A stretch of 64,000 nucleotides of DNA from Eledone cirrhosa. Its lineage: Eukaryota. Below the pieces are notes generated by a model. The model saw only the letters and a program-made list of their open reading frames with translations. It searched no databases and was not told where the DNA came from. The DNA lies in assembly GCA_964016885.1 (NCBI GenBank), contig OZ024748.1, forward strand, positions 32,984,001 through 33,048,000. The letters are read 5' to 3'. A program made the position numbers and the translations under genes. Positions 5,531 through 56,725 of the stretch are shown here, one piece after another (within the stretch, counting starts at the first letter, position 1; each line of letters begins with the position of its first letter).

Positions 5531-5581
5531 AGATTCTACAGGACTAGAACTGTTTCATTCATTAGAAATCATCAGGAATCT
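5531..5581 (-). ncRNA. Type I hammerhead ribozyme, core intact
   Basis: agattc-CTGATGA-tttc-taat-gaat-GAAA-cag-ttctagtc-ctg-TA-gaatct; GUA cleavage triplet. Confidence 0.85.
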
Positions 5582-6039: not shown

Positions 6040-7436
<1,397 letters not shown>

Positions 7437-7489
7437 TCCGGAGTTATTAATATTAAAATACAAATATTAATAAAATAGATGTTCTTTTG

Positions 7490-7559
7490 ATCAATTACAT
7501 TTTATTATACATATTTCGGATTTACAACAGTACGTCCTCATCAGACAAAATATAATGAT
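7490..7559 (-). ncRNA. Type I hammerhead ribozyme (inverted pLTR copy)
   Basis: Reverse complement of 12513-12582 with one stem II difference. Confidence 0.8.
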
Positions 7560-11204: not shown

Positions 11205-11388
11205 GTTTCTACTTTAGGAACAAGGCCAGCAATAACCCAGTGCATTACTGGTACTTTATTTTATCGACCCCGTAAGGATGAAAGGCAAAGTCAACCTCGG
11301 CAGGATTTGAACTCAGATCGTAAAGGCACGTAACTATGCTGGAAAGCATGGCGTCCGACCCTCTACCGATACTGCCAATCCACCGCCC
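11205..11388 (-). mobile_element. tRNA-derived SINE family A, full length
   Basis: Minus-strand A box tggcagtatcgg, B box gagttcaaatcc, central gcctttcatcc...ggggtcgataaa...gtaccag domain; many fragments elsewhere (15620, 16555, 46255, 49390-49862, 51616). Confidence 0.85.
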
Positions 11389-12512: not shown

Positions 12513-12582
12513 ATCATTATATTTTGTCTGATGAGGACGTACTGTTGTACATCCGAAATATGTATAATAAAATGTAATTGAT
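12513..12582 (+). ncRNA. Type I hammerhead ribozyme in PLE pLTR
   Basis: atcattatattttgt-CTGATGA-ggacgtac-tgtt-gtacatcc-GAAA-tatgta-TA-ataaaatgtaattgat. Confidence 0.85.
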
Positions 12583-12637
12583 CAAAAGAACATCTATTTT
12601 ATTAATATTTGTATTTTAATATATATATATGTGTATA

Positions 12638-13108
12638 TGTATACATATATGTATGTACGTATACATACTTATATTTAAGCAACAGCCGTACTAAGAGTGG
12701 GAAATGAAATTTCGTTTCATTTTTTCCGTTTATCGTTTTCGGTGCACCCGGCCGATTAACCCACTCGATATGCAAATTGGGCTACTCAGCCGTTAATATG
12801 CATACGTTCAACAATCTGGCAGGAAGGTATGCGTTGCTGACGATAGCTAATAAGCTTGAAACTAGTACAGCCTTCCTTTGTCAGTGTTGAACAAACGAGC
12901 AACGATGGTTGCTAGACACTACGGCTTAATACGGGATGTTTGTTTACAAACACACCGAGCATTATAATAAATGTTCGGTGAATCCATACGTACATATATA
13001 TATATGTGTGCATGTATGTATATATACATACTACTGTACGTCTGTATACATATATTTAAGTAACATCCGTACTAAGAGTGGGAAATGAAATTTCGTTTCA
13101 TTTTTTCC

Positions 13109-13113
<5 letters not shown>
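12638..13113 (+). mobile_element. Retrozyme-like non-coding HHR repeat (about 381-bp period, about 1.2 units)
   Basis: Terminal redundancy (ccgtactaagagtgggaaatgaaatttcgtttcat at 12686 and 13067); diverged homologue of the 472-bp unit at 47 kb; ends in (TA)n. Confidence 0.75.
12821..12877 (+). ncRNA. Minimal type I hammerhead ribozyme, core intact
   Basis: aggaag..gttg-CTGACGA-t-agct-aata-agct-t-GAAA-ctag-TA-cagc-cttcct. Confidence 0.85.
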
Positions 13114-13159
<46 letters not shown>

Positions 13160-20332: not shown

Positions 20333-20542
20333 CTCGTATACGAGAGACATGTGTTGACTTGTGTGAACAAGATCGGCTACCGAGTTGGATTTACTTACTC
20401 AAAAGTGAGTTTTGATTAATTTTTTTATACTGTAATATACGTTAACCCCTTGCCTTGGTCGTCAAACTTTGAGTTTATTTATTTTCGCCCCTGTTTGGGG
20501 CGAATTTTCCAGTTAAAAATTTATTACGGCAAACTAATAGAA

Positions 20543-22252: not shown

Positions 22253-22273
22253 GTCCTTCCTCTTTTAACCAAC

Positions 22274-25200
22274 ATGGCTGATATAAGAGTTGGGTGTCTG
22301 AATGTACGCGGCCTGGGACTGTCTTGGAAACAAGGCAAACTTTTAAACGATCTCAGGTCGCATAGAATGGATGTAATGGCTATTTGGGAGTCCAGGATCA
22401 GCAGCGAGCACCAACTGGCGCCCCTCTTCGATGACTTTGAGATCTTCGCATCTATCTGTCAACCGGTGGGTGGGGGTGGAGTTGTCGTTCTGCTGCGAAA
22501 ACACCTGGGCCTCGCCATACAGAAGGTGCACCTGGACCCGGAGGGTCGACTGGTGGTTTTAGACGTCGGCAGTAGTGAAAGTGGAGCCCTTAGACTAATT
22601 GGGCAGCACGGCCGGAATACTTCCAACGTCTGGAAACTTTTCTGGGAACGTCCCGCTCCTTGCTTTTAGTGGGGGACTGGAATGGTATCCTGGATGCACG
22701 TTGGGACTATGTAGAGGCATGTGCCAATAGAGGGGGGTGTAAAAGCCTCAAAAGGTTAATCGGCCGATTTGACCTGGCCGATAGATATCGACTAGATTTT
22801 CCGACTGTACCACTATGGACGTGGACCAATCGCAGCGGAACATCTAGGTTGAACCTAGATAGGGTCCTAGTTAGAGAGAAGGATAGGGACACATTTAGCT
22901 GTCCAAAAATGTTCATGGTTGACTATTCGGATCACAAGTTAGTGACCTGCATAGCCAACCTTGATAGAATCCATAGACAGGGACCCGGTTACTGGAAGCT
23001 GAACTTGTCCTTACCGACAAGCAAAGCTTACAGTAAACGGATTAGCACGTTAGTTAAGCAGAGTTTGACAGGGGCAATTGTCAACAACAGGTGGTGGAGC
23101 TCCCTTAAGAGAGCAATTAGAATAGAATCGATAGGTTTTAGTCAGGAATTAGCAAGGGATAGGAACAAGACGGAAAGGGAATTAGTAGATAGAGTAGAAG
23201 AGGCGATTAGGAGTGGCAATGTAGCCGGCGTGCTGGCATCAAGAATGGCCTTAGACCAGTTCTTTGAGGTGAAGCCTGAAGGCTGCGTTGTCAGGAGTAA
23301 AATACGTGCTCTGGGTAATGAGGGAGCCAAAGCTGTTAGCTGGGCCCGAGTGACAGAGGCAAAAAGTGGGAACAAGTCCACGATTCGGTCTTTGAAGGAC
23401 CAGGATGGGCGTGTGATCCTTGAACCTGGGCAGATGTGTGCGGCCTTTCAGCGGCACTTTGCACGACTGTTCGAGAGGGGCGCCGCGCCGGGTGAGACTA
23501 TGGATTTTAATCCATACCTCGACGGTCTGCCGCGCCTCTCGGTCGCGGAGGCGAAGTCCTGCGAAAGGACGATTTCAGCTGCTGAGATAGGGGCGGCGCT
23601 GAACCAATGCGGCAAACGCAAGTCCCCGGGTCTCGATGGGCTACCATACGAGCTATATGTAGCGATGCCGGACTTGTTCTCCGATATCCTCGAAGCGGTC
23701 TACTGCAACTGTCAGCAAAACGGGAGAATTCCCAGTTCTGTGACCAAGGGCGTAGTTACGCTGGTGAGGAAGGATGAGAACAAGGGGGATGTCATAAGTA
23801 ACTTCAGGCCCATAACTCTGCTAAATACAGAGTTAAAGATTTTGGCCAAGGTGTTAGCGAAGAGGTTGGCGCTTGTCGTCGGAAACCTGGTGGGAGAAGC
23901 GCAGACATGTGCAATCCCGTCCAGGTCCATTCACGACAATCTCCACCTTATGCGATACATCATAGAGAGGGTAGGGAATGAACCCGGCTTTGGTGGGGCC
24001 CTGATCAACTTGGATCAATCTAAAGCTTTCGATAGGGTTGACCATCGTTACCTGGATGCGGTGCTCGCGGCGGCAGGCTTCGGACCCGTTTTCAGGGGTT
24101 GGATTGCTGCGATGCACAGCAGCAACGTCTGCTCAAGGTTCAAGGTGAACGGCCACCTCTCGGAGCCGTTCCAAATCATGCGATCCATCCGACAGGGATG
24201 CCCTCTCTCCTCCCTTCTGTATGTGCTGGCTCTTGACCCACTACTGCGGAAGTTGGAGCGGTTGCAGGGCATCCCTTTGGAACCGGGATTGCAGAAAGCG
24301 GCGTCGGCCTACGCCGATGACGTGACAGTAATGGTGTCGAAAACCTCGCAAATCGGTGAGATCGGCACCTTACTGGAGGAATATGAAAGGTTTACAGGAG
24401 CCAAGCTGAACCGGGACAAGTCCGTCGGTTTGCAACTCGGAACATGGAGAGGCAAACCGATGCCCTCCAACGACGTCGTCGGACGCTGGACGGAGGGCCC
24501 GGTGAAGCTGCTTGGGGTCTGGTTCGGACCAGACCTCCAGGTGGAGAAAAACTGGAATGAGGTAACGGCCAGGGTGTTTTCACTCACCCAGAAGTGGGCC
24601 CAGTGCAAACTATCCCTGAAAGGTCGAGCGGAGGTGGCGAATACTTATATAGCATCCGTCATCTACTACCGCTTGACCGTCGTGCCTTGCCCAGTGAAAA
24701 GACTCGCCAAAATGGAGTGCGCGCTGTTCCAATTTCTTTGGAACAAGCGGACCCCTTTGGTGAGGAGATCCATCTGCTGTCAACACCCTTCGAAAGGAGG
24801 GCTGGGGATGCCGTGGCTACAGATGCGTAAACACGCATTAAGGCTACGGCACCTCCAGGTATTCCTCACCGGTCAACCGGTGTCGGCCCCGTTTGTGAGG
24901 CGAGCCTTTCCCAGACTCGTCTCGCTCACCGAGCTGCAATCCTGGGTCAAGCAAAGACCGAGAAAAGTGGGCGACTGGCACATTGAATGTGCCCAGGCGC
25001 TCACGGCCCTCTGGAAAGCGGACCTGGCAATCAGTGGAGACTCCACCTCGACATTCTATAGAGGGTTGGTACGCAACAGGTGCGACGATGCTCTCGGAGA
25101 AGCTCTAGGCATGGAGGAAGATGAACTGGCCAGTCTGTTCGGTAGGACGTTTGGCCCTGGGCCGATGGACAACTTCCAAAAGTCCCTGGCTTGGCAGTGC

Positions 25201-25690
25201 TACCGAGGGGCTCTACCCGTTCGAGACAAGCTCCACAGGCATGGGAGCCTGGGTAGGGATCCTTGGAATAAGATCTGTCCGAGATGCGTGCATGACGACG
25301 AAACCGTTGCGCACGCATTCGTACACTGCCCAGGCATTGCTGACCTGTGGGGCTATGTGGAACGACTACTGTCGAGGGTGGCACCAATCCGGTTGACCAC
25401 CGAGTCCATTGTCACGATCAAACCGCCTCCCCTTTTCAAAAACGAAGGAGAGTCGGTTTTTCTGTGTGATAGCCATGGCTAAAGAAGTTGTATGGTGGAC
25501 GAGGCTGAAAGGGCTGAGGTCAGACACCTTTCTCTCCGGCCAACAACTGGTCCCCTTTTTCAAATACCATTTTAAAAGAAGGATCAGAATGGAGAGAGAG
25601 GTGCTCTACCCCAGCAAGTTTTATGAAAGGTGGGTGAAAGTAGGGAGAATGGCCAGAGTGAATGGGTCTTCTCTCTATATCAGCCTGTAG
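22274..25690 (+). pseudogene. LINE ORF2 (APE endonuclease + RT + C-terminal zinc finger), two frameshifts
   Basis: LNVRGL, GDWN, SDH, GPGYWKLN, KSPGLDGL, FRPITLLN, DQSKAFDRV, IRQGCPLS, AYADDV, CPRC...ETVAHAFVHC. Confidence 0.93.
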
Positions 25691-25925
25691 GTGAAAGAAG
25701 AGGAAAAAGAGGAGACGAGGGAAGCACCTAATCTTTGTGCTCCTGAGGAGAAGGCTTGCACATTTTTTCCGGGGTGTGTGCGACCCATGTTAATGCCCCC
25801 TCCCTATTGAGGACTTCGTTTGTTGTTGTTATTTCATTGTTATATTTTTGTACTCGTTAATTATATGTAAACTTCACCCCTTGTATCTGTCCCTACCTTT
25901 TGTGCCCTAGTGGCAAATAAAGAAA

Positions 25926-26336
25926 TCACTCTATATATACTATTGTATTTTCACAGCAAAGACTTTACTGTGAAAATACAATAGTATATATAGAGTAATG
26001 TAAATGTTATGTGAGATATTATATGAGGGGAAGCCTTTACTGTGAAAATACAATAGTATATATAGAGTAATGTAAATGTTATGTGAGATATTATGTAAGA
26101 TAAAGACTTTACTGTGAAAATACAATAGTATATATAAAGTAATGTAAATGTTCTGTGAGATATTATGTGAGGTAAAGAATTTACTGTGAAAATATAATAG
26201 TATATATAGTGTAATGTAAATGTTATGTGAGATATTATGTGAGATAAAGATTTTACTGTGAAAATATAATAGTATATATAGAGTAATGTAAATGTTATCT
26301 GAGATATTATGTAAGATAAAGCCTTTACTTTGAAAA
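25926..26336. repeat. 72-bp satellite with strand switch at 25962
   Basis: Foldback palindrome 25926-25998, then direct units. Confidence 0.92.
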
Positions 26337-28422
26337 TGCGACCTGAGATCGTTTAAAAGTTTGCCTTGTTTCCAAGACAGTACCAGGCCACGTACATTCA
26401 GACAACCAACTCTTATATCAGCCATGTTGGTTAAAAGAGGAAGGACTTACCTGTTCGGCTCCTGGGGAACAGGTTGCACAATATCCATGGGCGTATTGGA
26501 GGGGTTGTTTGGTGGGGTGTTGTTTTGTGGTGGGGTGGGGGTGTTTGGTGAGGTGTGGGTGTCTTGGGTGTGTGTGGGGAAACGTTTCAAGAGGACGCGG
26601 TTATAGGGTTGAGTACATGTTTTCCCCACGTCCTCAGGAAAGTTCTCTCTTAGTTTTGCATAGGTGTCCATTGGGAGTCTTATCATTTTTAAATGCGGTT
26701 TGTTGGCCGCGCTTGCAAAGAATTGCCCTTCAGTTTCCACCGAAGGGTCTTTGTGTATTGTTTTTACTAGTTCTTTGTTATTTGTGTTAATGTATGTATA
26801 CTGTTTTATTTGTGTTGTCTTTGTGTTTGTTTGTTGTTCTTGTGTGTGCTTGCGTTTTGTTGTATGTGTTATGTTTTGGGGTGGGGTGGTTTTTGTTTGT
26901 TCTGTTTGTTTTGTTTTTGTTGGTGGTTGTGTGTTTGTTTCGTTTATGTTCATGTGGTGTTTTCTTTTTTTTCTTTTTACAGGTTGGAAGGGTTCCCCCT
27001 CTTCATCACTAGGTGCCGTTTCAGCTGGGTCCTCGTCCGTGCTGTCGGGTAGTGGTGTATTTTGGGGTTTTGTTGTGTTTGTGTGTGTTTTTGGAGTTGT
27101 TTTGGGTGGGACCGTGTCTTGTATTGTTTATTCGTGTTGTTTTTGTTGTTGTTGCTTTTGTTGTTGTTGTGGTCGTGGTAGTGGTGGTGGTGGTGGCGGT
27201 GGTGGTGTGTGGGGTGTAGGCAAAAGAGCCTTTTTTTTGTCAATTGAGCACAGGCAGCCCTTAGATGACCCCTGCTTGAACAGTAGTAACATATGGGCCT
27301 CCTACCCTCGGCTGAAATGTATACAAATGTTTCTCCATCGAGGGACACCCTCTGTGGTATTCTTGCTATTCGTTCTGGTCTCATTTGGACCAGAACCTCC
27401 ATGCTCAAACCGCCGAAAACGTGTGGTGACTTCTCCTACTGAGAGGATTCCGTCCTCGTCTTCTAAAAATCCTGTTAGTACCCAGGAAATGCATGCGTTT
27501 GGCCGGATTCCGGAGACTCTTATTTTTAGCATTCTTTTCCCCAAGTATGTGGGGAAAAATATGTGTAGCTTGGAAACAATTGGCGACACAGAGTATTTCC
27601 TGGCCGTCAATTGATCCTTCATTAGCACCGTTATATTCCCATAGAGTAGCCCTTTTTGTATGAACGATATATCACTCCACACATTTTTTAGGACCAGCTC
27701 AATCTCTTTTTGGGATAATTGAGCTGGTTTCCTTGTTATGTTGGAAATTGTTCTGAAGGATATCGTTCTTAGTGTCGTGTCTCTTTTGATTTCTTGGGGG
27801 GAGGTGATTGTGAAGTCTCCTCCTTCTTTGAAAGTTACATACTGTTTTGCTTCCTTCATCTTTTCTCTCAGAGTTGTAATGTCCAGTTGCTTGCAGGTCT
27901 GTGTTTTTCGGACCGCCTGTGCAAAGGAGGCACCAGTAGTGTGTTCGCTTTGTTTGGTGTTATCGTTATTTTTTCCTTTTTTTCTTGGTTGGTGTTGTGA
28001 CTATTGCTGTTGTTTGTCGTGCTGTTATTGTCATTGTTGTTTTTGTCTGCGTTTATGTGACTTTCTGGGTTTTCACCCATTTTAACAAATTTTTCTTTTA
28101 ATTCCATGTTCCATGTTTCTTTTGCAGAAGTGAGGAGGGAAGACTTAGAGCATTGTGCTTCTAGCTTCTCTGTATCACCTTTCTTAGGGGGCGTGGCTTT
28201 CACGTTAGGATGAGATGTGAAAATTCCGTCCATTTCTATCAGTTTGTCGTAATAAATTTTTAAATGTAAAATTAAATAAACTCAAAGTCTGACGACCCAG
28301 GCAAGGGGTTAACGTATATTACAGTACAAAAATAATAAATCAAAACTCACTTTTGAGTAAGTAAATCCAACTCGGTAGCCGAGCTTGTTCACACACGTCA
28401 ACACACATCTCTCGTATACGAG
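26337..28422 (-). mobile_element. Tx1-like LINE copy B (5' UTR + ORF1 + first ~30 codons of ORF2)
   Basis: High identity to 20333-22362. Confidence 0.92.
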
Positions 28423-28767
28423 ATGTTATGTGAGATATTATGTGAGGTAAAGACTTTACTGTGAAAATACAATAGTATATATAGAGTAATGTAAATATTA
28501 TGTGAGGTAAAGCCTTTACTATGAAAATATAATAGTATATATAGAGTAATGTAAATGTTATGTGAGATATTATGTGAGGTAAAGACTTTACTGTGAAAAT
28601 ACAATAGTATATATAGAGAAACGTAAAGGTTATGTGAGATATTATGTGAGGTAAAGCTTTTACTGTGAAAATACAATAGATTATATATAGAGTAATGTAA
28701 ATGGTATGTGAGATATTATGTGAGGTAAAGACTTTACTGTGAATATACAATAGTATATATAGAGTAA
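28423..28767. repeat. 72-bp satellite array
   Basis: About 5 units between LINE copies B and C. Confidence 0.95.
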
Positions 28768-29003
28768 TTTCTTTATTTGCCACCAGGGCACAAAAGATAA
28801 GAACAGATACAAAGGGGGGAAGTTTACATATAATTAACGAGTACAAAAATATAACAATGAAATAACAACAACAAACGAAGTCCTCAATGGGGAGGGGGCA
28901 TTAACATGGGTCGCACACACCCCGGAAAAAATGTGCAAGCCTTCTCCTCAGGAGCACAAAAAGTAGGTGCTTCCCTCGTCTCCTCTTTTTCCTCTTCTTT
29001 CAC

Positions 29004-32000
29004 CTACAGGCTGATATAGAGAGAAGACCCATTCACTCTGGCCATTCTCCCTACTTTCACCCACCTTTCATAAAACTTGCTGGGGTAGAGCACCTCTCTC
29101 TCCATTCTGATCCTTCTTTTAAAATGGTATTTGAAAAAGGGGACCAGTTGTTGGCCGGAGAGAAAGGTGTCTGACCTCAGCCCTTTCAGCCTCGGCCACC
29201 ATACAACTTCTTTAGCCATGGCTATCACACAGAGAAAAACCGCCTCTCCTTCGTTTTTGAAAGGGGGAGGCGGTTTGATCGTGACAATGGACTCGGTGGT
29301 CAACCGGATTGGTGCCACCCTCGACAGTAGTCGTTCCACATAGCCCCACAGGTCAGCAATGCCTGGGGAGTGTACGAATGCGTGCGCAACGGTTTCGTCG
29401 TCATGCACGCATCTCGGACAGATCTTATTCAAAGGATCCCTACCCAGGCTCCCATGCCTGTGGAGCTTGTCTCGAACGGGTAGAGCCCCTCGGTAGCACT
29501 GCCAAGCCAGGGACTTTTGGAAGTTGTCCATCGGTCCAGAGCCAAACGTCCTAACGAACAGACTGGCCAGTTCATCTTCCTCCATGCCTAGAGCTTCTCC
29601 GAGAGCATCGTCGCACCTGCTGCGTACCAAACCTCTATAGAATGTCAAGGTGGAGTCTCCACTGATTTCCGGGTCCGCTTTCCAGAGGGCCGTGAGCGCC
29701 TGGGCACATTCAATGTGCCAGTCGCCCACTTTTCTCGGTCTTTGCTTGACCCAGGATTGCAGCTCGGTGAGCGAAACGAGTCTGGGAAAGGCTCGCCTCA
29801 CAAACGGGGCCCACACCGGTTGACCGGTGAGGAATACCTGGAGGTGCCGTAGCCTTAATACGTGTTTATGCATCTGTAGCCACGGCATCCCCAGCTCTCC
29901 TTTCGCTGGGTGTTGACAGCAGATGGATCTCCTCACCAAAGGGGTCCGCTTGTTCCAAAGAAATTGGAACAGCACGCACTCCATTTTGGCGAGTCTTTTC
30001 ACTGAGCAAGGCACGACGGTCAAGCGGTAGTAGATGACGGATGCTATATAAGCGTTCGGCACCTCCGCTCGACCTTTCAGGGATAGCTTGCACTGGGCCC
30101 ACTTCTGGGCGAGTGAAAACACCCTGGCCGTTACCTCATTCCAGTTTTTCTCCATCTGGAGGTCTGGTCCGAACCAGACCCTAAGCAGCTTCACCGGGCC
30201 CTCCATCCAGCGTCCGACGACATCGTTGGAGGGCATCGGTTTGCCTCTCCATGTTCCGAGTTGCAAACCGACGGACTTGTCCCGGTTCAGCTTGGCTCCT
30301 GTAAACCTTTCATATTCCTCCAGTAAGGTGCCAATCTCACCGATTTGCGAGGTTCTCGACACCATTACTGTCACGTCATCGGCGAAGGCCGACGCCGCTT
30401 TCTGCAATCCCGGTTCCAAAGGGATGCCCTGCAACCGCTCCAACTTCCGCAGTAGTGGGTCAAGAGCCAGCACATACAGAAGGGTGGAGAGAGGGCATCC
30501 CTGTCGGATGGATCGCATGATTTGGAACGGCTCCGAGAGGTGGCCGTTCACCTTGACCCTTGAGCAGACGTTGCTGCTGTGCATCGCAGCAATCCGACCC
30601 CTGAAAACGGGTCCGAAGCCTGCCGCCGCGAGCACCGCATCCAGGTAACGATGGTCAACCCTATCGAAAGCTTTAGATTGATCCAAGTTGATCAGGGCCC
30701 CACCAAAGCCGGGTTCATTCCCTACCCTCTCTATGATGTATCGCATAAGGTGGAGATTGTCGTGAATGGACCTGGACGGGATTGCACATGTCTGCGCTTC
30801 TCCCACCAGGTTTTCGACGACAAGCGCCAACCTCTTCACTAAGACCTTGGCCAAAATCTTTAACTCTGCATTTAGCAGAGTTATGTGCCTGAAGTTACTT
30901 ATGTCCTCCCCCTTGTTCTCGTCGTTCCTCACCAGCGTAACTACGCCCTTGGCCACAGAACTGGGAATTCTCCCGTTCTGCTGCCAGTTGCAGTAGACCG
31001 CTTCGAGGATATCGGAGAACAAGTCCGGCATCGCTACATATAGCTCGTATAGTAGACCATCGAGACCCGGGGATTTGCGTTTGCCGCATTGGCTCAGCGC
31101 CGCCCCTATCTCAGCAGCTGAAATCGTCCTTTCGCAGGACTTCGCCTCCGCGACCGAGAGGCGCGGCAGACCGTCGAGGTATGGATTGAAATCCATAGTC
31201 TCACCCGGCGCACCGCCCCTCCCGAACAGTCGTCCAAAGTGCCGATGAAAGGCCGCACACATCTGCCCAGGTTCAAGGATCACACACCCATCCTGGTCCT
31301 TGAAAGACCGAATCGTGGACTTGTTCCCATTTTTTGCCTCTGTCACTCAGGCCCAGCTAACAGCTTTGGCTCCCTCATTACCCAGAGCACGTATTTTACT
31401 CCTGACAATGCAGCCCTCGTGCTTCACATCAAAGAACTGGTCTAAGGCCATTCTTGATGCCAGCACGCTGGCTATATTGCCACTCCTAATCGCCTCTTCT
31501 ACTCTATCTACTAATTCCCTTTCCATCTTGTTCCTATCCCTTGCTAATTCCTGACTAAAACCTATCGATTCTATTCTAATTGCTCTCTTAAGACTGCTCC
31601 ACCACCTGTTGTTGACAATTGCCCCTGTCAAACTCTGCTTAACTAACGTTCTAATCCGTTTACTGTAAGCTTTGCTTGTCGGTAAGGACAAGTTCAGCTT
31701 CCAGTAACCGGGTCCCTGTCTATGGGTTCTATCAAGGTTGACTATGCAGGTCACTAACTTGTGATCAGAATAGTCAACCATGAACATTTTTGGACAGCTA
31801 AATGTGTCCCTATCCTTATCTCTAACTAGGACCCTATCTAGGTATGACCTAAATGTTCTGCTACGATTGGTGCACGTCCAATGTGGTACAGTCGGAAAAT
31901 CTAGACGATATCTATCGGACAGGTCAAATCGGCCGATTAACCTTTTGAGGCTTTTACACCCCCCCCCCCCCTCTATTGGCACATGCCCCTACATAGTCCC

Positions 32001-32450
32001 AACGTGCATCCAGGATACCATTCCAGTCACCCACTAAAAGCAAGGAGCGGGATGTTCCCAGAAAAGTCTCCAGACGTTGGAAGTAGTCCGGCCGTGCTGC
32101 CCAAAAAGGGGCGTACACAGCAATTAGTCTAAGGGCTCCACTTTCACTACTGCCGACGTCTAAAACCACCAGTCGACCCTCCGGGTCCAGGTGCACCTTC
32201 TGTATGGCGAGGCCCAGGTGTTTTCGCTGCAGAACAACAACCCCACCCCCACCCACCCCCGGTTGACAGAGAGATGCGAATATCTCAAAGTCGTCGAATA
32301 GGGGCGCCAGTTGGCGCTCACTGCTGATCCTGGACTCGCAAATAGCCATTACATCCATTCTATGTGACCTGAGATCGTTTAAAAGTTTGCCTTGTTTCCA
32401 AGACAGTCCCAGGCCGCGTACATTCAGACACCCAATCTTATATCAACCAT
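29004..32450 (-). pseudogene. LINE ORF2 (APE-RT), disrupted
   Basis: 780-aa open RT portion (FADD); CGA>TGA stop at 31347; frameshifts near 31970 and 32435. Confidence 0.92.
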
Positions 32451-32471
32451 GTTGGTTAAAAGAGGAAGGAC

Positions 32472-33914
32472 CTACCTGTTCGGCTCCTGAGGAACAGGTT
32501 GCACAATATCCATGGGCGTATTGGAGGGGTTGTTTGGTGGGGTGTTGTTCTGTGGGGGTGTTTGGTGAGGTGTGGGTGTCTTGGGTGTGGGTGGGGAAAC
32601 GTTTCAAGAGGACGCGGTTATAGGGTCGAGTACATGTTTTCCCCACGTCCTCAGGAAAGTTCTCTCTTAGTTTTGCATAGGTGTGCATTGGGAGTCTTAT
32701 CATTTTTAAATGCGGTTTGTTGGCCGCGCTTGCAAAGAATTGCCCTTCAGTTTCCACCGAAGGGTCTTTGTGTATTGTTTTTACTAGTTCTTTGTTATTT
32801 GTGTTAATGTATGTATACTGTTTTATTTGTGTTGTGTTTGTTTGTTGTTCTTGTATGTGCTTGCATTTTGTTGTATGTGTTATGTTTTGGGGTGGGGTGG
32901 TTTTTGTTTGTTCTGTTTGTTTTGTTTTTGTTGGTGGTTGTGTGTTTGTTTCGTTTATGTTCATGTGGTGTTTTCTTTTTTTTCTTTTTACAGGTTAGAA
33001 GGGTTCCCCCTCTTCGTCACTATGTGCCGTTTCAGCTGGGTCCTCGTCCGTGCTGTCGGGTAGTGGTGTATTTTGGGGTTTTGTTGTTTGTGTGTGTTTT
33101 TGGAGTTGTTTTGGGTGGGACCGTGTCTTGTGTTGTTTATTCGTGTTGTTTTTGTTGTTGTTGTTGTTGTTTTTGTTGTTGTTGTGGTAGTGGTAGTGGT
33201 GGTGGTGGTGGTGGTGGTGGCGGTGGTGGTGTGTGGGGTGTAGGCAAAAGAGCTTTTTTTTGTCAATTGAGGACAGGCAGCCCTTAGATGACCCCTGCTT
33301 GAACAGTAGTAACATATGGGCCTCCTACCCTCGGCTGAAATGTATACAAATGTTTCTCCATCGAGGGACACCCTCTGTGGTATTCTTGCTATTCGTTCTG
33401 GTCTCATTTGGACCAGAACCTCCACGTTCAAATCGCCGAAAACGTGTGGTGACTTCTCCTAATGAGAGTATTCCGTCCTCGTCTTCTAAAAATCCTGTTA
33501 GTACCCAGGAAATGCATGCATTTGGCCGGATTCCGGAGACTCTTATTTTTTGCGTTCTTTTCCCCAAGTATGTGGGGAAAAATGTGTGTAGCTTGGAAAC
33601 AATTGGCTTGGAAACCAGTAGTGGGTTCGCTTTGTTTGGTGTTATCGTTATTTTTTTCCTTTTTTTCTTGGTTGGTGTTGTGACTATTGCTGTTGTTTGT
33701 CGTGCTGTTAATGTCATTGTTGTTTTTGTCTGCGTTTATGTGACTTTCTGGGTTTTCACCCATTTTTACAAATTTTTCTTTTAATTCCGTGTTTCATGTT
33801 TCTTTTGCAGAAGTGAGGAGGGAAGACTTAGAGCATTGTGCTTCTAGCTTCTCTGTATCACCTTTCTTAGGGGTCGTGGCTTTCGTTAGGATGAGATGTG
33901 AAAATTCCGTCCAT
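32472..33914 (-). pseudogene. LINE ORF1, disrupted
   Basis: CYYCSSRGHLRAAC; matches copy A. Confidence 0.85.
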
Positions 33915-37083: not shown

Positions 37084-37551
37084 GTACCCCCCCCCCTCCC
37101 TCCAGTGAGAAAGCTAAGATTGAACGATCTAGGTGCATGTGAAATGAAGATAGGTATGACTAGGTGTGTTGTTGAAGAAAATCAGTAAAAATAAAAAAAC
37201 ACATGAAAGTCATTTACAAACAGGAGACTTGCAAAGCAAAAGAAATTTACACACAGGAAAATGTACGGTGATTTTACATAAAACTGAAAATGTTCGTACG
37301 AAAAGTTTGTTGATTAAAAGTTCGTTCATTTCATAGAAACGGAAAAATGTTCTTTTGTCTGTTCTTTTGATGTGGGTGATGCACAGAGTTAATTGATTTG
37401 TGTGTAACAATAGTTCATGACCACAGAAATTGGCCGATTCGTTGAAACGTACAAATTAGCTGAAATGTCGACCAGATGCATAATTTGTACTTACCCGATA
37501 AACTTGTACGTATCGCGTGGACCATCGGACTGTTCTTCCAGATTTGGTGTG

Positions 37552-40500
37552 TCAGGGTTGTGCAGAATTTGCTGTGTTTGTGTCGGGCAAAGTTATTGGT
37601 GAGTCTGCTGGAGAAACGGTGGGTACTGGTGGCAATTCCTGTTCTATGAACGCTTTTTTTAAACGATCAATGGAGACAGTATTTCGTTTCCCGTTCAAGT
37701 CGAGGACGAAATACTTAGGGCATTTCTGTATCACCTTATAGGGCCCGGAATACGGCGGACGAAGTTGCGATGGAATACCGTCATTTCTAACGAAAACATG
37801 CGTCCATGTATCGATGTCTTTTGGTATGTGTGAAGTAACGTGCTGTTGTTTAGGGGCTGAAGGAGACAGATGCGACATCGATGACCGTAAACGGTGCACA
37901 TATTTTGTAGGGTCTGGAAGTTCTTGTGGCGAAACAGGAGCAATCATTTGTCCGGGTAGAGTGAGTACGGTGCCATACACCATTTCAGCCGGAGAATGTC
38001 CGACTCCCTCCTTAACAGTGGAACAAATACCAAGAAGAATGAGTGGGAGGTATTCAAACCAGTTAGTGGAGTCTTCGTAAGCCTTGATAGATGATTTTAG
38101 CTGGCGGTGTAAGCGTTCTACCATGCCGTTAGCGACAGGGTGATATGCTGTTGTACGGATGTGTTTGCACCCGAGGAGACGAGTCAGCTCGGTAAATAGG
38201 TGCGAATCGAACTGACGTCCTCTATCCCTAGTGATGGTCGCGGGTGTGCCGAAACGCAAAACCCAGTGAAACACTAGCGTTTTGGCGACAGTTTCCGCAG
38301 TAATATCCGTCAGGGGAAAAGCTTCTGCCCAGCGAGAAAATCGGTCAACACAGGTGAGAAGATGAGTGTAGTTGTGAGAAGGAGGCAAAGGTCCAACGAT
38401 GTCTATATGCACATGTTGGAACCGTGCATCAGGTGTTGCGAAAGAACCGATTGGGGCTTTGATGTGCCGGTGAATTTTTTCGCCTTCTGGCACGCGATAC
38501 AGTTCCTATCCCATTCGCGGGTGTCCTTGTTGATGTTGGGCCACACAAAGCGGGCAACCAACAGTTTCTGCGTGGCGCGGACGCCAGGATGTGCCAGAGA
38601 ATGCAGTGCCGAGAAAACGTTGCGTCGATGTTTCCGGGGCACGTATGGAAACTCCTGGCCTGTGGAGATGTCGCACCAAATATAACCCGAAGAAGAGGGC
38701 AGCGGGCATTCCTTCAATTTCAAGGATGATTTCCGGAGTTGCAGCAGTTCCTCGTCATTCTGTTGATCTGCTGCAATCTTCTGGAGGTCGATAGTGGCAG
38801 TGGTGTGGATTGCGTTAATCTCCATGCGCGATAGGGCATCAGCTGCTGAGTTGGTTTCACCCTTAATGTACCGAATATCAGTAGTGTACTGAGAAATGAA
38901 GTCCATGTCGGACCTCCCTGGGTGAGTGTCGGTCTGACTTGGCATTGAACGCGAACACTAGTGGTTTGTGGTCGGTGTATATAGAGAACACACGACCTTC
39001 TAGCATGTGGCGAAAATGCTTGACAACAAGGTATGCTGCCAATAATTCACGACTGAATGTGCTGTACTTAGTTTCGGCGGGTTTTAATCGCTTAGAGAAA
39101 AAAGATACAGGTCGCCAAATATCGCAAGAGAGTTGGTGAAGCACACCTCCAACTCCGAAATCGGATGCATCAGTCAATAAACACATTAGGGCGTCACGTT
39201 TGGGGTAACTCAGCATTGTAGCCTCGGACAACATTTTCTTCAACTCAGCGAAAGCGGTACATTCTTTTTCGCTGAGCTTGATGTTTGCGTTTTTGGTTGT
39301 ACGCTGCCGCAGCAAATCTGTGAGGGGTTGGGCTGTCTCTGCACAGTGGGGTATAAATCTTCTGTAGAAGTTTACCAGGCCAAGAAATTCTCGCAGTTTG
39401 CGGAGAGATGTAGGTTGTGGAAAATCAATGATGGATTTGACTTTCTCCTTAAGTGGGCGAATACCATCTTTGTCAATGATGTGTCCCAGAAAATGAAGGG
39501 ACGCAACTCCGAACTCACATTTGCTGGGGTTGATAACAATTCCGTATTCACGCAAACGTGTGAATAGGAGATCCAGGTGTTTCTCATATTCTTCATCGGA
39601 GCTGCTGGCCACCAGTAAGTCGTCAATGTATGCGTATACAAAAGGTAGACCTCTGGTGACTGTATCGATGAATCGCTGGAATGTCTGCGCTGCATTTCGC
39701 AAACCGAAAGGCATACGCAGAAATTCGAACATTCCAAAGGGTGTTGTGACTGCGGTCTTTGGAATATCTGCGGGCTCAACGGGTATCTGATTGTAAGCTC
39801 GCACAAGATCGATCTTCGAAAATATGCGAGCCCCGTGCAGTGAGCTAGAGAAGTCCTGTAGATGAGGCGCTGGATAAGAGTCAGGAACGGTGCAGTTGTT
39901 TAGTGCATGGTAGTCGCCACAGATTCGCCAGTTGTTCGACGACTTCTTGGGTACACAGTGTATGGGTGAGGACCAGTTGCTGCTGGACGGACGTATGATG
40001 CCGAGATCCAGCATGTGCTGAAATTCTTGTTTGACGGACTTCAGCCGGTCTGGTGGTAGCCTTCTAGGTCGTGCAGCGACAGGTGGGCCGTGTGTTTTTA
40101 TGTGGTGTGTGACGTCATGTTTTACAGGGCAAGCGTTGAATAGTGGTCGAGTTACGTCTGGGTATTTGTTGATGATGTGGTTGTGCCGAGTTGTTGTCGA
40201 TCGTGAAATGACTGGACTGACTGTGGCTGTCCTAGCGGCTATGCTGCGCACAGCGAGACCAGTGGAGTTGTCAACGAGTCGTTGGTTTTTCAGATCCACT
40301 AGCAGCGAGAAGTACTGAAGAAAATCAGCTCCTAAAATAGAGGTCGGCAGCTTAGCCACAACGAATACCCACTGGAAAGTGCGGCGTAGTCCCAAATTTA
40401 GTGTCAGGGACTGTTCTCTGTAGGTCGGAATATCTGAGTGATTCACCGCCTGGAGCCAGGCTGGTGTCTCTCTCCTTTTTCCAGGAACGCAGGAAACCGG

Positions 40501-40620
40501 GATGATGCTCACTTCAGCACCGGTGTCGACCAGGAAACGCGTGCCTGTGACGCGATCCTGAATAAAAAATAGGCGACTTTGGTTATGAGGGCCAGAAACG
40601 TCTGTCGCATTCAGTTTCTG
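37552..40620 (-). pseudogene. Gypsy pol (protease, RT, RNase H, integrase), frameshifted
   Basis: [40 protein letters not shown]...[28 protein letters not shown]. Confidence 0.95.
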
Positions 40621-41464
40621 GCTGTGTCGTTTCCCTGATTTGTTTTCGAAACAAAGGAACAGGGATGGCTGCACTTTTGCGCTTATCTCCCGAATCTTTG
40701 GTGGTACCAACACATTTCTGGTGAATCTCGAGATGCGCTGGGACTTCTTGAGCGACCACCAAATCGGCGAGTTCGACTGTTGGACCGACGCGTGGCAGGG
40801 TAGCCCAGTGACAAGGCCTGAATTTGTTGCATCAAGGCCTGTATCTGTGTTGCTTGCTGTGCCAGTAACTGGTGTAGATCGGGCATCTCTGTGGCACTGG
40901 AGGGCTGAAGGAAAGGATTGGCGGAAGGCACGGCTGGCGTCACATTCGCTATTTTTGAGTGCGGATGTGGTACCTCCATGATCTTATCTGCCAGCTCAGC
41001 GAGTTCTTCTATGGTGGTGGACTCCCTGGTGGATGCTAGTACAACTTGTGTGGCAGAAGGTAAACGCTGGAGGAAGAGTTGCTTGAACATTTCATCCGGG
41101 AGTTTATGTTCACCCAGAAGCTGCTTCATTCTCCGTAGGAGTTGCGTCGGCTTTTTATCTCCTAATTCCTCCGATATGAGGAGCTGGTGCAAACGTTTCT
41201 GCTGCGACTCCGACGTCCGCTTAACTAATGTTCTTTTAAATGTGTCATATGACACAGAGCCTGGTGGTGCTAAAATGAGGTCTGGAACCTCATTCATAAT
41301 CTCCGGAGACATCGAATCGATGAGATGTGTGAAACGGGATGCCTCGCTAACGATCCGGTTCGATGCGAACTGCGCTTTGATGTGCAGAATGGTGGAATCC
41401 TTAATATAAATGCCGCCCTGACTGCCATTTCTGCTGCTGATGAATCTTCGTGTGCTAGAGACAT
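40620..41464 (-). pseudogene. Gypsy gag, disrupted
   Basis: [37 protein letters not shown] (CHCC-type knuckle). Confidence 0.88.
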
Positions 41465-41503
41465 TGTTTGTAGAGGATGATCAGAAGGTTGTGTGTCTGT
41501 TTT

Positions 41504-46752: not shown

Positions 46753-47279
46753 ATCTATATACATACATATATCTATAAATGCATACATATATCTATATAT
46801 ACATACATATATCTATATATACATACATATATCTATATATACAAATATATATATATATATCTATATATACATGCATATATCTATATACATACATATATCT
46901 ATATACATATATACATATATCTATATATACATACATATATCTATATATACATACATATATCTATAAATACATAAGTTGAAAAAAATGAAAACGAAATTTC
47001 ATTTCTCACTCTTAGTATGGCACTTACTTAAATGTAAGTATGTATGTATACGTACATACATATATGTATACAAACGTACAGTAGCATGCATATATATATA
47101 TATCCATATATATATATATATATATACATACAGGTACACATACATATATGCACGCATCAGTTTAGCGGACGCTTATTATAACGCCGCTTTGTTCGTTTGT
47201 AAACAAACTGAACAGCCTGAATTTATGCCATACGGTGTTAAGGCAACCACGTCACCTTTTTGTTCAACACTGACACAGG

Positions 47280-47324
47280 AACGATGTACTAGTTTCAAGC
47301 TTGTTAGCTATCATCAGCACCGTT
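47280..47324 (-). ncRNA. Minimal type I hammerhead ribozyme, intact
   Basis: aacggtg-CTGATGA-t-agct-aaca-agct-t-GAAA-ctag-TA-catcgtt. Confidence 0.9.
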
Positions 47325-47751
47325 TACCCATCTGCCAGATAGTTGAACGTTCGAAAGTATATACTTTCCTTATGAAAATTAACGGCTGAGCAGCCTAATT
47401 TGCATAATGAGTGAGTTAAATCGGTCAGGCATACCGAAAACGATAAGTTGAAAAAAATGAAAACGAAATTTCATTTCTCACTCTTAGTATGGCACTTACT
47501 TAAATGTAAGTATGTATGTATACGTACATACATATATGTATACAAACGTACAGTAGCATGCATATATATATATATCCATATATATATATATATATATACA
47601 TACAGGTACACATACATATATGCACGCATCAGTTTAGCGGACGCTTATTATAACGCCGCTTTGTTCGTTTGTAAACAAACTGAACAGCCTGAATTTATGC
47701 CATACGGTGTTAAGGCAACCACGTCACCTTTTTGTTCAACACTGACACAGG

Positions 47752-47796
47752 AACGATGTACTAGTTTCAAGCTTGTTAGCTATCATCAGCACCGTT
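47752..47796 (-). ncRNA. Minimal type I hammerhead ribozyme, intact
   Basis: Identical to 47280-47324. Confidence 0.9.
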
Positions 47797-48070
47797 TACC
47801 CATCTGCCAGATAGTTGAACGCTCGAAAGTATATACTTTCCTTATGAAAATTAACGGCTGAGCAGCCTAATTTGCATAATGAGTGAGTTAAATCGGTCAG
47901 TGCCATACTAAGAGTGAGAAATGAAATTTCGTTTTCATTTTTTTCAACTTATCGTTTTCGGTATGCCTGACCGATTTAACTCACTCATTATGCAAATTAG
48001 GCTGCTCAGCCGTTAATTTTCATAAGGAAAGTATATACTTTCGAACGTTCAACTATCTGGCAGATGGGTA

Positions 48071-48115
48071 AACGGTGCTGATGATAGCTAACAAGCTTGA
48101 AACTAGTACATCGTT
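48071..48115 (+). ncRNA. Minimal type I hammerhead ribozyme, intact
   Basis: CTGATGA 48078-48084; GTA 48106-48108. Confidence 0.9.
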
Positions 48116-49389
48116 CCTGTGTCAGTGTTGAACAAAAAGGTGACGTGGTTGCCTTAACACCGTATGGCATAAATTCAGGCTGTTCAGTTTGTTTACAAAC
48201 GAACAAAGCGGCGTTATAATAAGCGTCCGCTAAACTGATGCGTGCATATATGTATGTGTACCTGTATGTATATATATATATATATGGATATATATATATA
48301 TGCATGCTACTGTACGTTTGTATACATATATGTATGTACGTATACATACATACTTACATATAAATACATACATATATCTATATATACATACATGGCTGCC
48401 AACTCGTTTTCGCGTACGGCCACTACATTATATCCATGTAGGAGAACTCCTACGGATGCGCTGAACGAGTATGACTTTTTAGTCCAGCCAGCAACTTGAA
48501 AACTCTGGTACAAACACTACACTTGTGACAATTATTGACACATAGTGCTGGGCCCATGGTACCATGTGACGACAAGTGCAGAGAGATATCCAGATATAAA
48601 GCAATGCCTGTGTCATGAAGCTTTTATAGTGAGCAAAGGCACTGCACAAAGCCAGTCCCACTCTCTTAACCAAGATGATATTTACCAAAAAGAAGAACAA
48701 GTCAACATCATTGGATACCATCAGGGTTGCAGGTGTTATATCAGAGTTTTCCTTCTCCTAGAATTCTGCCTTGACAAAGGCTAAGGGGTCATCTCATACA
48801 TATATCTATAAATACATACATATATCTATATATACATACATATATCTATATATACATACATATATCTATATACATACATATATCTACATACATATATACA
48901 TGTGCGCGTATATCTGTGTATATATAATGACCCATAAACTGTTCACTTTCCTGACATTTGTACATTATTCTATGTACTATACATGCACCTTTGATGAGTT
49001 GTAGTGCATCTGAGCACTGTACACAATAATTTTGTTTACTACAAGACACCGGCAGGTGCAAACTACCCCCTCTCCCCAACTACCGACCCGTGGGGTCAGT
49101 TCGCTTTCATTCTCGACGTACCTATACAGAAATTTAGCCTGACAGACCCACCCCACCTTCAAAAACCCTGTAAAATCTACTCACAATAGCCGGATAATCA
49201 GTTGGTCATTCCCCTCCACTGGAAAGAACGATTGATTTTTCCTCTTCGCCGCCATCTTGCAGAACAACACAGACTTGCAACGACACCTATAAACACGGGT
49301 TCTGAAACCGGTTACCTCCCCTTACGCTTACTGGCTGGCTTACCGGTCGGTTGATATGCTAGAAATAGCAGTCAAATCTCCATCATAAT

Positions 49390-52597: not shown

Positions 52598-52711
52598 CGC
52601 TTACAGCACCTAGGGTTCCCAAGCGGTCACCAATCTAAGTAATAACTAGGCTCGACGTTGCTTAACTTCGGTGATCAGACAAGAACTGGTGTTTTCAGCG
52701 TAATATGGCCG
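52598..52711 (-). pseudogene. 5S rRNA pseudogene (lacks the first ~5 nt)
   Basis: cggccatattacgctgaaaacacc...gatcaccgaagttaagcaacgtcgagcc...gtgaccgcttgggaa...gtgctgtaagc followed by a T run; several substitutions. Confidence 0.88.
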
Positions 52712-52803
52712 ATATATATATATATAACGAAGGAAATGTGGTAAGGAAACAGGTGGACCATAACGCACCAAAGTACTCAATACTTAGGGTAGTAGAGTGG
52801 GTA

Positions 52804-53105: not shown

Positions 53106-53361
<256 letters not shown>

Positions 53362-53395
53362 GATATTAAATAAATGGAAACTATACTTATAAAAC

Positions 53396-53474
53396 CATAT
53401 TTATTTCATTATATATATTTCAGGGATATCATATTAAAAATATGTTATGCCTTCTTCAGACAAAATACAATATA
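53396..53474 (-). ncRNA. Type I hammerhead ribozyme (inverted pLTR copy)
   Basis: Reverse complement of 56526-56604. Confidence 0.8.
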
Positions 53475-53850
53475 AACAGTCTTATAAATAGATAGATTCG
53501 ACATACCTTTCAACTTCGACTTCTATTTGAAAAGTTGATTTGGTAGTGAAAACATATTAGGGACAGTTATAAAAAGAAAGAAAGAAAAACGAAGAAAAAG
53601 AAGAAATGCATGCAACTAAATAGAGAGAGATAGATATAGAGAGATAGATAGAGAGAAGAAATTCATGTAAAGAAACAGAGAGAGATATATAGAGAGAGGA
53701 AAAAAACACAGAGGGAGATAGATAGAGAGAGAGAGAGAGAAGAGAGGAGAGAGAGAGAAAATATAGAGAGATAGATATAGATAGAGATAGAGAGAAAGAA
53801 ACTAGGTAATTGGGCACCAGTTGAATGACGTATCAATGATATATTTATTT

Positions 53851-55094
53851 CAGGTAACTGACCTTGTAGGCCTAATTATAATCAATTCGCTGCATAGGAA
53901 AATACCCGGTGCTACCGGAGGTTTATATAGAGATGACATGCTTTTACTTATTGAAAATAATAACTCTGAACTAAATAGAAAAATAAAACAAATTACACAA
54001 TTTTTTAATTACTTTAATCTAAAAATAGAAATTGAGAATAACCATAGAATAGTCAATTTCCTAGACGTAACATTAAATCTCAACACATGTCTTCACTATC
54101 CATTTCACAAGTTGAATGAAAACTTAAACTATGTCAGTTTTAACTCTAACCACCCCAGATCTGTTAAAAATACTATAGTGAACTCTGTTCAAAAACGTAT
54201 CTCTAGAATCTCTTCCAATAAAAAGATTTTCGACGAAAAAGCCCAGTATTACAATGAAGCGTTAGCTAGAGCAGGATATAGTGATAAAATTATGTACATA
54301 GATAATAATAGACAAACTAACCAAAATAACAACAATTTTAATTACGGCAACAACTTTAACAACTATAATAGAAAGCATTACAATAATTCCAAAAGCCAAA
54401 AAAGAAATAGAACTAGGAATATAATATGGTTTGCCCCCCCTTTCTCACTAAACATTAAAACCCACATCGCTAAACTATTTTTTAATGCTCTTGATAATCG
54501 CTTCCCTAGAACACATAGGTATCACTCAATTTTCAATAGACATACTATAAAATTAACTTACTCATCCACCAAAAATTTAGCACAAAATATTAATAGAATA
54601 AATAATAAGAATCTAAAACCTAGCCAAAATACCGATAATAGCATAAATAATATCCAAGTAAACAAATGTAACTGTAGAGATAGATCTAAATGTCCGTTAA
54701 ATAACAATTGCTTAGTTAAAAATATAATATACAACTGTAATGTTAAAACGGACTTAAATTCTTTTAACTATGTTGGTTCCACCTCGACAGAATTTAAACT
54801 TCGCTATAATAACCACAAGAATTCTTTCACAGATCCAAGCAAAAATCCTCAACATCACTATCAGGCCTACTCTGGCAACTTAGGCATGATAACGTTGGAT
54901 ATTCAACGGCTTGGAATATAGTCTCAAGAGGGATTCCTTTTAATTCATCCTCTGAGACATATGACCTCTGCGCGGAGGAGATATTCTTTATACTAAAATC
55001 TAAAAATTCCCTTAATTTACGGACAAATTTATTCAGTTGCTGCAGACATAGATTGAACTCAACTTTTAAATATAAATATAAATTTAAAATGTAG
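53851..55094 (+). pseudogene. PLE RT (from motif B/C) + GIY-YIG, frameshift near 54845
   Basis: GGLYRDD, NFLDVTL, SNHPRS, CNCRDRSKCPL, IIY...YVGST...RYNNHK. Confidence 0.92.
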
Positions 55095-56173
55095 TATATT
55101 TAATTTGATTTATAATTATTTATGAAACTCGCCGATAAATCTTTCGATTCCTTTTTATTTTAAACATTCTTCATGAATAATTAAACTACCCTAAAAGCTG
55201 ATGCTCCAAATATATCGAATAAATTTTACACTAGATAAACTTCTATATTAAATATAAGACCATCTGTAGATCAAATGGGTATCCTAAACTTTTGGAATGT
55301 TTTCTGCTAGACAGGATTTGGTAAATAATTTTTGGTTTTGTTTGCTTTTGATTCTGATGCTTATAACGAACTTGGCATTATATTGTCAATTAACTTTGAA
55401 GGGTTGATCTCTGTGGTTGATTTGCGGGGCATACTATGTTTTATTTTTATTTTAATATTTTTAATATTTTTAATATTTTTATTTTTAATATTTTTTTGAT
55501 TTTTTGTTTTTTATTTACTTTTTTTTATTTTTTTATTTACTTTTTGTTTCTGATATTTTTATTGATATATTGATATCTGTTCTCTATTTATGCTTGAACG
55601 ATAATCATGTAGAGTAAAGACATGAATAGTATTGTTAAAATTAATGTAGACTCTATATATATTTGTGTGTATGTACACATATATGTATACTTAAATTTTT
55701 ATAGCACAATGAGAATGTTTTCGTGTGAAATATGAATTTGCAGAGCTGATCACGTAAATTCACATGGATGTATATAGTATAAAATCTGGGATAACCTTCT
55801 ATTTTATCTCAACTCTAATATAAACCTAGGAATTTTAAACTAGACATATGATCATTATTTTTCACACATTATTGATACGTGTCTCATTCATGAATACTGA
55901 TATTTACATTATAATGCCTGTTTTATACGAATTGATATTTTTTACATTGATGAAACATAGTGTTTTAAATCTGCCTCGTTTTTGTCTGGATATTTTTCTT
56001 TTCTCTCTATGTAACGGCTGTTTTCTCTCTTAACCACATATATCTCTCTCTACATTAATACTAGAGCTAAATAAATAAATAAATAAATAAATATATCATT
56101 GATACGTCATTCAACTGGTGCCCAATTACCTAGTTTCTTTCTCTCTATCTCTATCTATATCTATCTCTCTATA

Positions 56174-56256
<83 letters not shown>

Positions 56257-56525
56257 CTTCTCTCTCTCTCTCTCTATCTATCTCCCTCTGTGTTTTTTTT
56301 CCTCTCTCTATATATCTCTCTCTGTTTCTTTACATGAATTTCTTCTCTCTATCTATCTCTCTATATCTATCTCTCTCTATTTAGTTGCATGCATTTCTTC
56401 TTTTTCTTCGTTTTTCTTTCTTTCTTTTTATAACTGTCCCTAATATGTTTTCACTACCAAATCAACTTTTCAAATAGAAGTCGAAGTTGAAAGGTATGTC
56501 GAATCTATCTATTTATAAGACTGTT

Positions 56526-56604
56526 TATATTGTATTTTGTCTGAAGAAGGCATAACATATTTTTAATATGATATCCCTGAAATATATATAATGAAATAAA
56601 TATG
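56526..56604 (+). ncRNA. Type I hammerhead ribozyme in PLE pLTR
   Basis: tattttgt-CTGAAGA-agg..catatt/aatatg..cct-GAAA-tatata-TA-atgaaata. Confidence 0.82.
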
Positions 56605-56725
56605 GTTTTATAAGTATAGTTTCCATTTATTTAATATCGTAAATATACTCCAAATACTTGTTGAGTGCTTTTATATCAGTTATAAATATTTACTCGTTGT
56701 TAACCCAACAATTTAAATAAAACTT

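Follow-up and report, generated by a model that had tools for sequence, protein, structure and literature searches.

Which enzyme spreads the retrozymes of animals, and are circular RNAs the templates that it copies? Both questions are raised by a group of hammerhead-bearing repeats in a 64,000-nucleotide stretch of Eledone cirrhosa DNA (assembly GCA_964016885.1, contig OZ024748.1, positions 32,984,001 to 33,048,000; hereafter the window). Having compared this locus with its relatives in the 3.0-Gb genome, we favor, at a probability of roughly 0.6, the reading that the repeats are a high-copy non-coding retrozyme, likely spread by the enzyme of a Penelope-like element (PLE) copying repeatedly round a predicted monomer circle. 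The retrozyme class is known, and a link to PLEs has already been proposed (PMC7229834; bioRxiv 10.64898/2026.07.22.740005). Four things are added to the initial annotation of the window: a pair of fixed 3' ends, the number of copies, related families and the sequence barcodes of individual arrays.

Structure of the insertion

The locus had been annotated as three near-identical 472-bp units, two in tandem and one inverted. This arrangement was confirmed, but only the first copy reaches the full 472 nt; the second measures 458 nt and the third ~460 nt, with a TA tract that is 4 nt shorter. The two minus-strand copies (at 46971 and 47443) lie exactly 472 nt apart and are distinguished by one mismatch (47350/47822) over 458 nt. 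The inverted plus-strand copy is 98.5% identical to the others over 475 alignment columns. The copies form two arms (Table 1). When unit positions are numbered from the ribozyme cut, the left arm has its 5' boundary at position 331 and its 3' boundary at position 316, while the right arm extends from position 263-265 to a short 3' end at about 256-258. The tail that separates the two 3' ends includes a hairpin and also contributes the 3' strand of a long-range stem, in which compensatory changes are seen. The cut-to-cut monomer of the insertion is the predicted circular RNA.

A putative target-site duplication of 8-12 bp flanks the insertion. It lies inside a minisatellite and is only probable, because the same 12-mer is found a third time, at 48807, in this minisatellite. 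At other loci, target duplications are masked by TA flanks. In animal non-LTR retrozymes, target duplications exceed 4 bp where they are present. The minisatellite also contains a high-copy 400-bp repeat (48394-48793), 35 bases from the right arm. Elsewhere in the window, several LINE copies with endonuclease and RT frames (20400-33800) are inverted, with 2.7-kb arms that are 97% alike, and alternate with a 72-bp minisatellite. The minus strand carries an LTR-retroelement-like gag-pol region, split over several frames, at 37550-41480 and a lone 5S rRNA-like sequence (75 bits) at 52599-52716.

Table 1. Positions of the insertion, its parts and related elements in the window.
Feature	Position	Strand	Description
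Whole insertion	46971-48359		Left and right arm head to head; 2-nt overlap at the inversion junction
Left arm	46971..47900	-	930 bp, nearly two units; ends at the long 3' end
Right arm	47901..48359	+	About one unit, ~460 bp
Tail between short and long 3' ends	46971..47028	-	58 nt
Sole complete cut-to-cut monomer	47287..47758	-	472 nt, 35% GC
Probable target-site duplication, left copy	46962..46973	+	Last 3 nt common to the element
Probable target-site duplication, right copy	48359..48370	+
Hammerhead with extended stem I	48056..48125	+	Core from 48078; predicted cut after 48108
Hammerhead copy	47742..47811	-	Core from 47789; predicted cut after 47759
Hammerhead copy	47270..47339	-	Core from 47317; predicted cut after 47287
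Internal TA microsatellite with GG interruption (barcode)	48277..48316; also 47075-47114, 47547-47586	+ (48277..48316)
Subfamily B copy	12642..13114	+	~420-nt unit type; core from 12837, stem I weakened
Broken PLEs with inverted terminal repeats	4039-5500; 7250-12620; 53353-56720

The hammerhead motif

Each unit carries a type I hammerhead, as annotated, although the description of the motif as minimal had to be revised: the layout of stems I and II is canonical, by the definitions of the two layouts in PMC4209133. Stem I comprises 6-7 bp and continues via an internal loop, and stem II consists of a U.U pair and 3 bp with a 6-nt loop. According to the same source, the hammerheads of PLE terminal repeats (pLTRs) have a long helix II of 7-8 bp, a helix I of 4-5 bp and a poorly defined loop 1. 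In contrast, helix II of the unit has 4 positions, helix I has 6-7 bp and the internal loop is conserved. Judged by its sequence, the hammerhead has the canonical layout, as type I hammerheads of non-LTR retrozymes do.

Conservation of the fold was analyzed in 12 hammerhead variants from four subfamilies. Common to all are a 6-bp stem Ia, the conserved internal loop, a further stem and a stem II that has four positions and a 6-nt loop. Stem III has one or two pairs, and its loop is palindromic in 11 of the 12 variants. In the alignment, which represents few independent lineages, 93% of the cells are paired and two-sided changes occur at 6 of 15 pairs.

In the Rfam scan that had been proposed with the annotation as a check, no hammerhead match was obtained for the whole window at E values up to 1, and a 121-nt stretch gave an HH9 match of 18.5 bits, the gathering score being 52. 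Family C, a young family of 466-nt retrozymes with arrays of more than 30 units (for example at L045:9020-9480, minus strand, and L143-L167), has a stronger ribozyme with a G-C pair at the base of stem II; its hammerhead matched HH9 with 38.6 bits (E 5.8e-9), likewise below that score. The isolated 66-nt hammerhead stretch of the unit folded no better than shuffled sequences (z -0.27). Given a stem II that begins with U.U and a sub-threshold Rfam score, the predicted ribozyme looks weak. Two axolotl ribozymes that share the U.U stem II base and have comparable stem III features cleaved poorly alone and well as dimers (PMC7229834), and the activity predicted for the unit is probably slow and dimer-dependent. 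Note that of nine predicted frog retrozyme dimers, only one showed cleavage (bioRxiv 10.64898/2026.07.22.740005).

Copy number, relatives and coding capacity

The 67-nt hammerhead of subfamily A is present in 7,676 exact copies in the 3.0-Gb genome. Exact matches to the hammerhead core of subfamilies A and B number 24,001, with 0 for the reversed control, indicating that the core is not a chance occurrence. A pattern that mostly recovers subfamily D gave 1,688 matches (control, 20), and a hairpin motif shared with family C was matched exactly 30,484 times genome-wide. The units thus constitute a high-copy dispersed family, a point that the initial annotation had left to a genome-wide count. 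The genome is very rich in hammerhead families: at least 8 further ones were seen in ~0.5 Mb (loci L011-L113), most with palindromic stem III loops that differ in sequence. An unrelated 310-nt tandem hammerhead repeat is found at L076:2274-2894 and L128:5911-6287; its core resembles that of a minus-strand element ending near window position 5516 (core at 5575).

Families A, B and C have pairwise identities of 81%, 62% and 64% (A versus C, 62%), and unit sizes across families range from 420 to 530 nt. The three are colinear round the entire unit, including the stretch that joins the tail to the ribozyme, indicating that the ORF-less unit predates their divergence. The subfamily B copy in the window has one arm with the same long end and lies in the TA run that terminates a PLE.

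The absence of a credible protein, noted at first inspection, held up. The 134-aa antisense frame of the unit has no Pfam match and is not kept in families B and C, and no ORF common to families A, B and C was detected. No tRNA was found in the unit, the GC content of which (35%) is under 50%. An ORF combining RT and GIY-YIG between terminal repeats was not found at the loci examined, so that the units do not class as autonomous PLEs. Together, the motif in the unit, the genome-wide dispersal and the lack of a protein bear out the assignment as a non-coding hammerhead tandem repeat of the retrozyme type.

When folded as circles, units of families A, B and C adopted the same branched structure, with z scores of -9.4, -8.7 and -10.2, respectively (40 shuffles each; values inflated by TA hairpins). 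Compensatory changes were seen at 2 of 7 pairs of the long-range stem that ends in the tail, and a consensus fold by RNAalifold restricted to the tail segment yielded no covariation bonus (+1.27); these covariation counts reflect few independent lineages. The comparison suggests that the units evolve with the ribozyme fold kept across families that are 62% identical.

We also considered an snRNA-type promoter, suggested by a conserved octamer-like word in the unit and by the precedent of newt satellite 2 (PMC2220036). This candidate was rejected, as inspection by eye of 400 bases of upstream sequence from each of three U2 copies revealed no octamer. The octamer-like word is one arm of a conserved hairpin. 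The best alignments between the three U2 upstream regions and the units reached 14-16 of 20 positions, in AT-rich DNA and with no shuffle control. At G000:C3:307.35-307.45 Mb, U2 snRNA genes are arrayed in tandem with a 2.2-kb period.

Insertion ends and target sites

Copies of the unit stop at two fixed 3' sites, ~258 and ~316 nt past the cut and 58 nt apart, and have variable 5' ends. We analyzed 85 non-overlapping loci, which were top or first-listed matches and not a random sample. At these loci, 123 of 131 called ends run into TA-type repeats, and 36 of 40 two-arm head-to-head insertions combine one long with one short end. The exceptions are two long-long and two short-short insertions, and two of the 36 long/short pairs have one end outside the TA run. 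Overlapping loci were excluded from the counts (L046 was left out as a duplicate of L045), and the end count allows for the palindromic tail hairpin, which matches both strands. Insertions of family C have the same two ends and follow the same pattern. An 18-unit array (L049 and L127; G000:C8:24183300-24192000) with both arms at the short end and the same flank is perhaps a later inverted duplication.

PLE insertions have a layout of inverted arm plus tail (PMC8557442; PMC3846280). In vitro, purified PLE protein cuts both strands of AT-rich DNA and starts reverse transcription at two internal sites of the RNA (PMC11167929). Because the paired fixed ends, the tail and the TA targets of the unit match this layout and the two-start chemistry, we infer that the unit is mobilised by a PLE protein. 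The link to PLEs drawn in the initial annotation is thus retained as far as the inverted insertion in TA-rich DNA is concerned, but not with the PLEs of the window as partners. The latter carry frameshifts and have terminal repeats without any sequence in common with the unit, so that a role in mobilising it in trans is not supported. Their own hammerheads (at 7544, 12528, 53459 and 56541) are of the long-helix-II type, and their own long and short ends are about 75-100 nt apart. These PLEs fit the Hydra clade by their TA target and by motifs described in PMC8557442, and Pfam did not recognize the PLE fragments of the window. A perfect palindrome at 7294-7391 consists of two PLE tails that meet tail to tail across a TA run.

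Search for a coding parent

PLE ORF fragments occur near some unit copies among the matches listed, and several PLE types occupy the same TA runs as the units. At no locus examined was the unit the pLTR of a coding PLE, in line with the ribozyme-only element originally envisaged: what follows the long end is a further unit or TA, and never an ORF. Profile searches with the tail and the stretch following it covered 267 records (1.11 Mb, partly redundant, of 3.0 Gb) and detected no homolog other than members of the family. Insertions that appeared to be chimeras of a retrozyme arm and a PLE arm (L040, L045, L057, L070, L071, L093 and L110) were rejected as such. On reading by eye, six proved to be independent insertions within or next to a common TA run, and L110 resembles a later deletion.

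Variant patterns within and between arrays

The internal TA microsatellite provides a natural barcode. The version interrupted by GG occurs three times in the 3.0-Gb genome, corresponding to all three units of this insertion in both arms. A looser GG pattern adds one match, which was rejected as the parent of the barcode because it comes from one unit with a different haplotype. Two other variants, apparently private within the sample, belong to small lineages of 39 and 195 copies genome-wide.

These lineages supplied sister arrays, and barcodes were compared by eye in 12 of them, nine from one micro-lineage and 3 from the second. The nine sister arrays display eight different microsatellite patterns, and 78 of their 86 readable units match the pattern of their own array. 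Both arms have the same pattern in all 4 two-arm cases, and sister insertions have a new barcode fixed in as many as 19 units, on both arms. Most arrays are nearly mutation-free, with 0-2 singletons. The presence of one variant per array, in both arms, suggests that usually one monomer variant was multiplied at or near insertion.

Arms contain 1-18 hammerheads. Junctions across the cut site are exact in 255 of 266 cases, with 1 indel, similar to five control positions. The 5' ends do not accumulate at the cut: 2 of 97 arms of family A (which include a few short microsatellite-only matches) end within 8 nt of it, with 3.5 expected, as do 2 of 45 arms of family C, with 1.6 expected. The clean passage through the cut site and the lack of a 5'-end pile-up argue against a cut linear template.

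In some arrays, minority variants are common to several units: 3 of 19 units in L119, in both arms, 2 of 3 in L126, 3 of 18 in L273 and 2 of 6 in both L275 and L128, with several such variants in L049. Variant tags that were indel-alignment artefacts or mixtures of two insertions were left out. These shared minority variants, in one case periodic and across both arms, need either oligomeric templates or later exchange. They suggest that a pure monomer circle does not fit all arrays and that some templates were oligomeric.

Proposed mechanism and alternatives

Based on these results, spread of the family would proceed as follows. Tandem units would be transcribed, and two hammerheads would associate by their palindromic stem III loops and slowly release the 472-nt monomer, which a host ligase would close, both steps by analogy with axolotl (PMC7229834). 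The PLE reverse transcriptase/GIY-YIG protein, likely as a dimer, would bind the structured tail (PMC11167929), nick both strands of the TA target and start cDNA at unit positions ~258 and ~316, one on each strand. In this priming step the end positions are observed, and the enzyme is deduced from PMC11167929. Each cDNA would then run through the ribozyme site, for up to 18 rounds and with a variable stop; the scar-free read-through is observed, whereas the circle is presumed. Finally, two cDNAs would join head to head, or one would join the target, structures that are both found among the insertions. Some templates were likely dimer or trimer circles or uncleaved multimers. A rolling-circle model for retrozymes was proposed in PMC7229834.

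The same PLE-mediated insertion could use a different template, namely a linear multimer that is transcribed from a pre-existing array and left uncleaved, with a ribozyme that is slow or dispensable and with uniform arrays that were inherited from uniform sources or homogenised later. We regard this as rather unlikely. In vitro, unprocessed RNA was the dominant and preferred substrate of the PLE protein and ribozyme mutants were still inserted (PMC11167929), and the ribozyme of the unit has weakening features. Moreover, a linear multimer explains the scar-free read-through equally well and accounts for unit variants that are shared between arms (L119, L126) or periodic (L275, L128). However, it cannot spread a new one-unit variant to all units of a longer array. 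Frequent additional homogenisation would be needed, given the barcodes fixed over up to 19 units and the GG case. Nor does a dispensable ribozyme agree with the conservation of core and stems, with compensatory changes, across families 62% identical.

Two further explanations were considered. The units might be tandem solo pLTRs shed by an unsampled coding PLE family, which we consider very improbable. Their ends are those of a pLTR with a tail, frog retrozymes are homologous to PLE pLTRs (bioRxiv 10.64898/2026.07.22.740005), and the DNA examined amounts to ~1.1 Mb, partly redundant, of 3.0 Gb. Against this stand the absence of any ORF beyond the long end at the loci examined, the colinearity of A, B and C round a whole ORF-less unit that is older than their divergence, and a canonical ribozyme unlike the long-helix-II type of pLTRs and of the window PLEs. 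Least credible of all is a dispersed minisatellite, the arrays of which grew by unequal exchange after single insertions, with the ribozyme as a relic. Some long arrays (L049, L116, L273) do have variants arranged in blocks or periodically, as would be expected from such growth, and local amplification after insertion has been proposed (bioRxiv 10.64898/2026.07.22.740005). Yet it leaves unexplained the fixed paired ends, the conserved RNA fold, the nearly mutation-free arrays and the inverted arms that are both multi-unit and carry one barcode.

Copying round a predicted monomer circle by a PLE enzyme therefore remains our preferred reading. In a more comprehensive form, to which we give slightly less than even odds, the arrays would be the direct genomic record of a PLE enzyme using ribozyme-made circles as rolling-circle templates, with two internal start sites in use simultaneously, and the units an old, ORF-less, viroid-like lineage. 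This lineage would comprise at least 4 families and more than 30,000 units under RNA-structure constraint, with no surviving homologous coding parent.

Significance and comparison with known systems

The family presents the PLE two-start signature on a canonical retrozyme and gives exact predicted start sites, and its natural barcode allows parent and daughter arrays to be traced. Unlike the dispensable ribozyme tested in a PLE, the full-layout ribozyme of the unit may have a job, which the data suggest is making the circle. If the more comprehensive reading above is true, the tail signature would also reveal which partner retrozymes use in other animals. In a literature search, with Dfam and Repbase outside its scope, neither this family nor tails or paired inverted arms in retrozymes came to light. 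In the part of the octopus repeat paper covered (PMC13282606), ribozymes are not mentioned.

In animal non-LTR retrozymes (coral, mussel and axolotl; PMC7229834), units range from 150 to 450 nt. The 472-nt unit is slightly above this range and lies within the wider retrozyme size range of 51-972 nt. A tail, paired ends and inverted arms, which are features of the present unit, are not described in the text of PMC7229834 covered. For the present unit, circles and cleavage are predictions from genomic sequence. As summarized in a 2020 review (PMC7761336, in the part covered), the repeats of animal retrozymes have no motif that points to a partner.

With PLE/PAc elements (PMC11167929; PMC8557442; PMC3846280) the unit shares two fixed 3' ends downstream of the ribozyme, an inverted 5'-truncated arm, an AT-rich target and, probably, a short target duplication. 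It differs from PLEs in the lack of an ORF, in a tail of 58 nt compared to 30-40 nt, and in the many full units per arm. Non-autonomous Chlamys elements such as MRC1, known from algae (PMC8557442), are likewise non-coding PLE dependants with multicopy head-to-tail insertions. As described there, they mostly lack canonical hammerheads and are usually similar at their 3' ends to an autonomous family; in contrast, the present unit has a hammerhead and no matched family. The vertebrate retrozymes (bioRxiv 10.64898/2026.07.22.740005) belong to the same class and have the same proposed PLE partner. While the evidence in the preprint consists of co-occurrence and pLTR homology, no homologous pLTR was found here in 1.11 Mb, and the case for a PLE partner is built on the anatomy of the insertions and the barcodes of their arrays.
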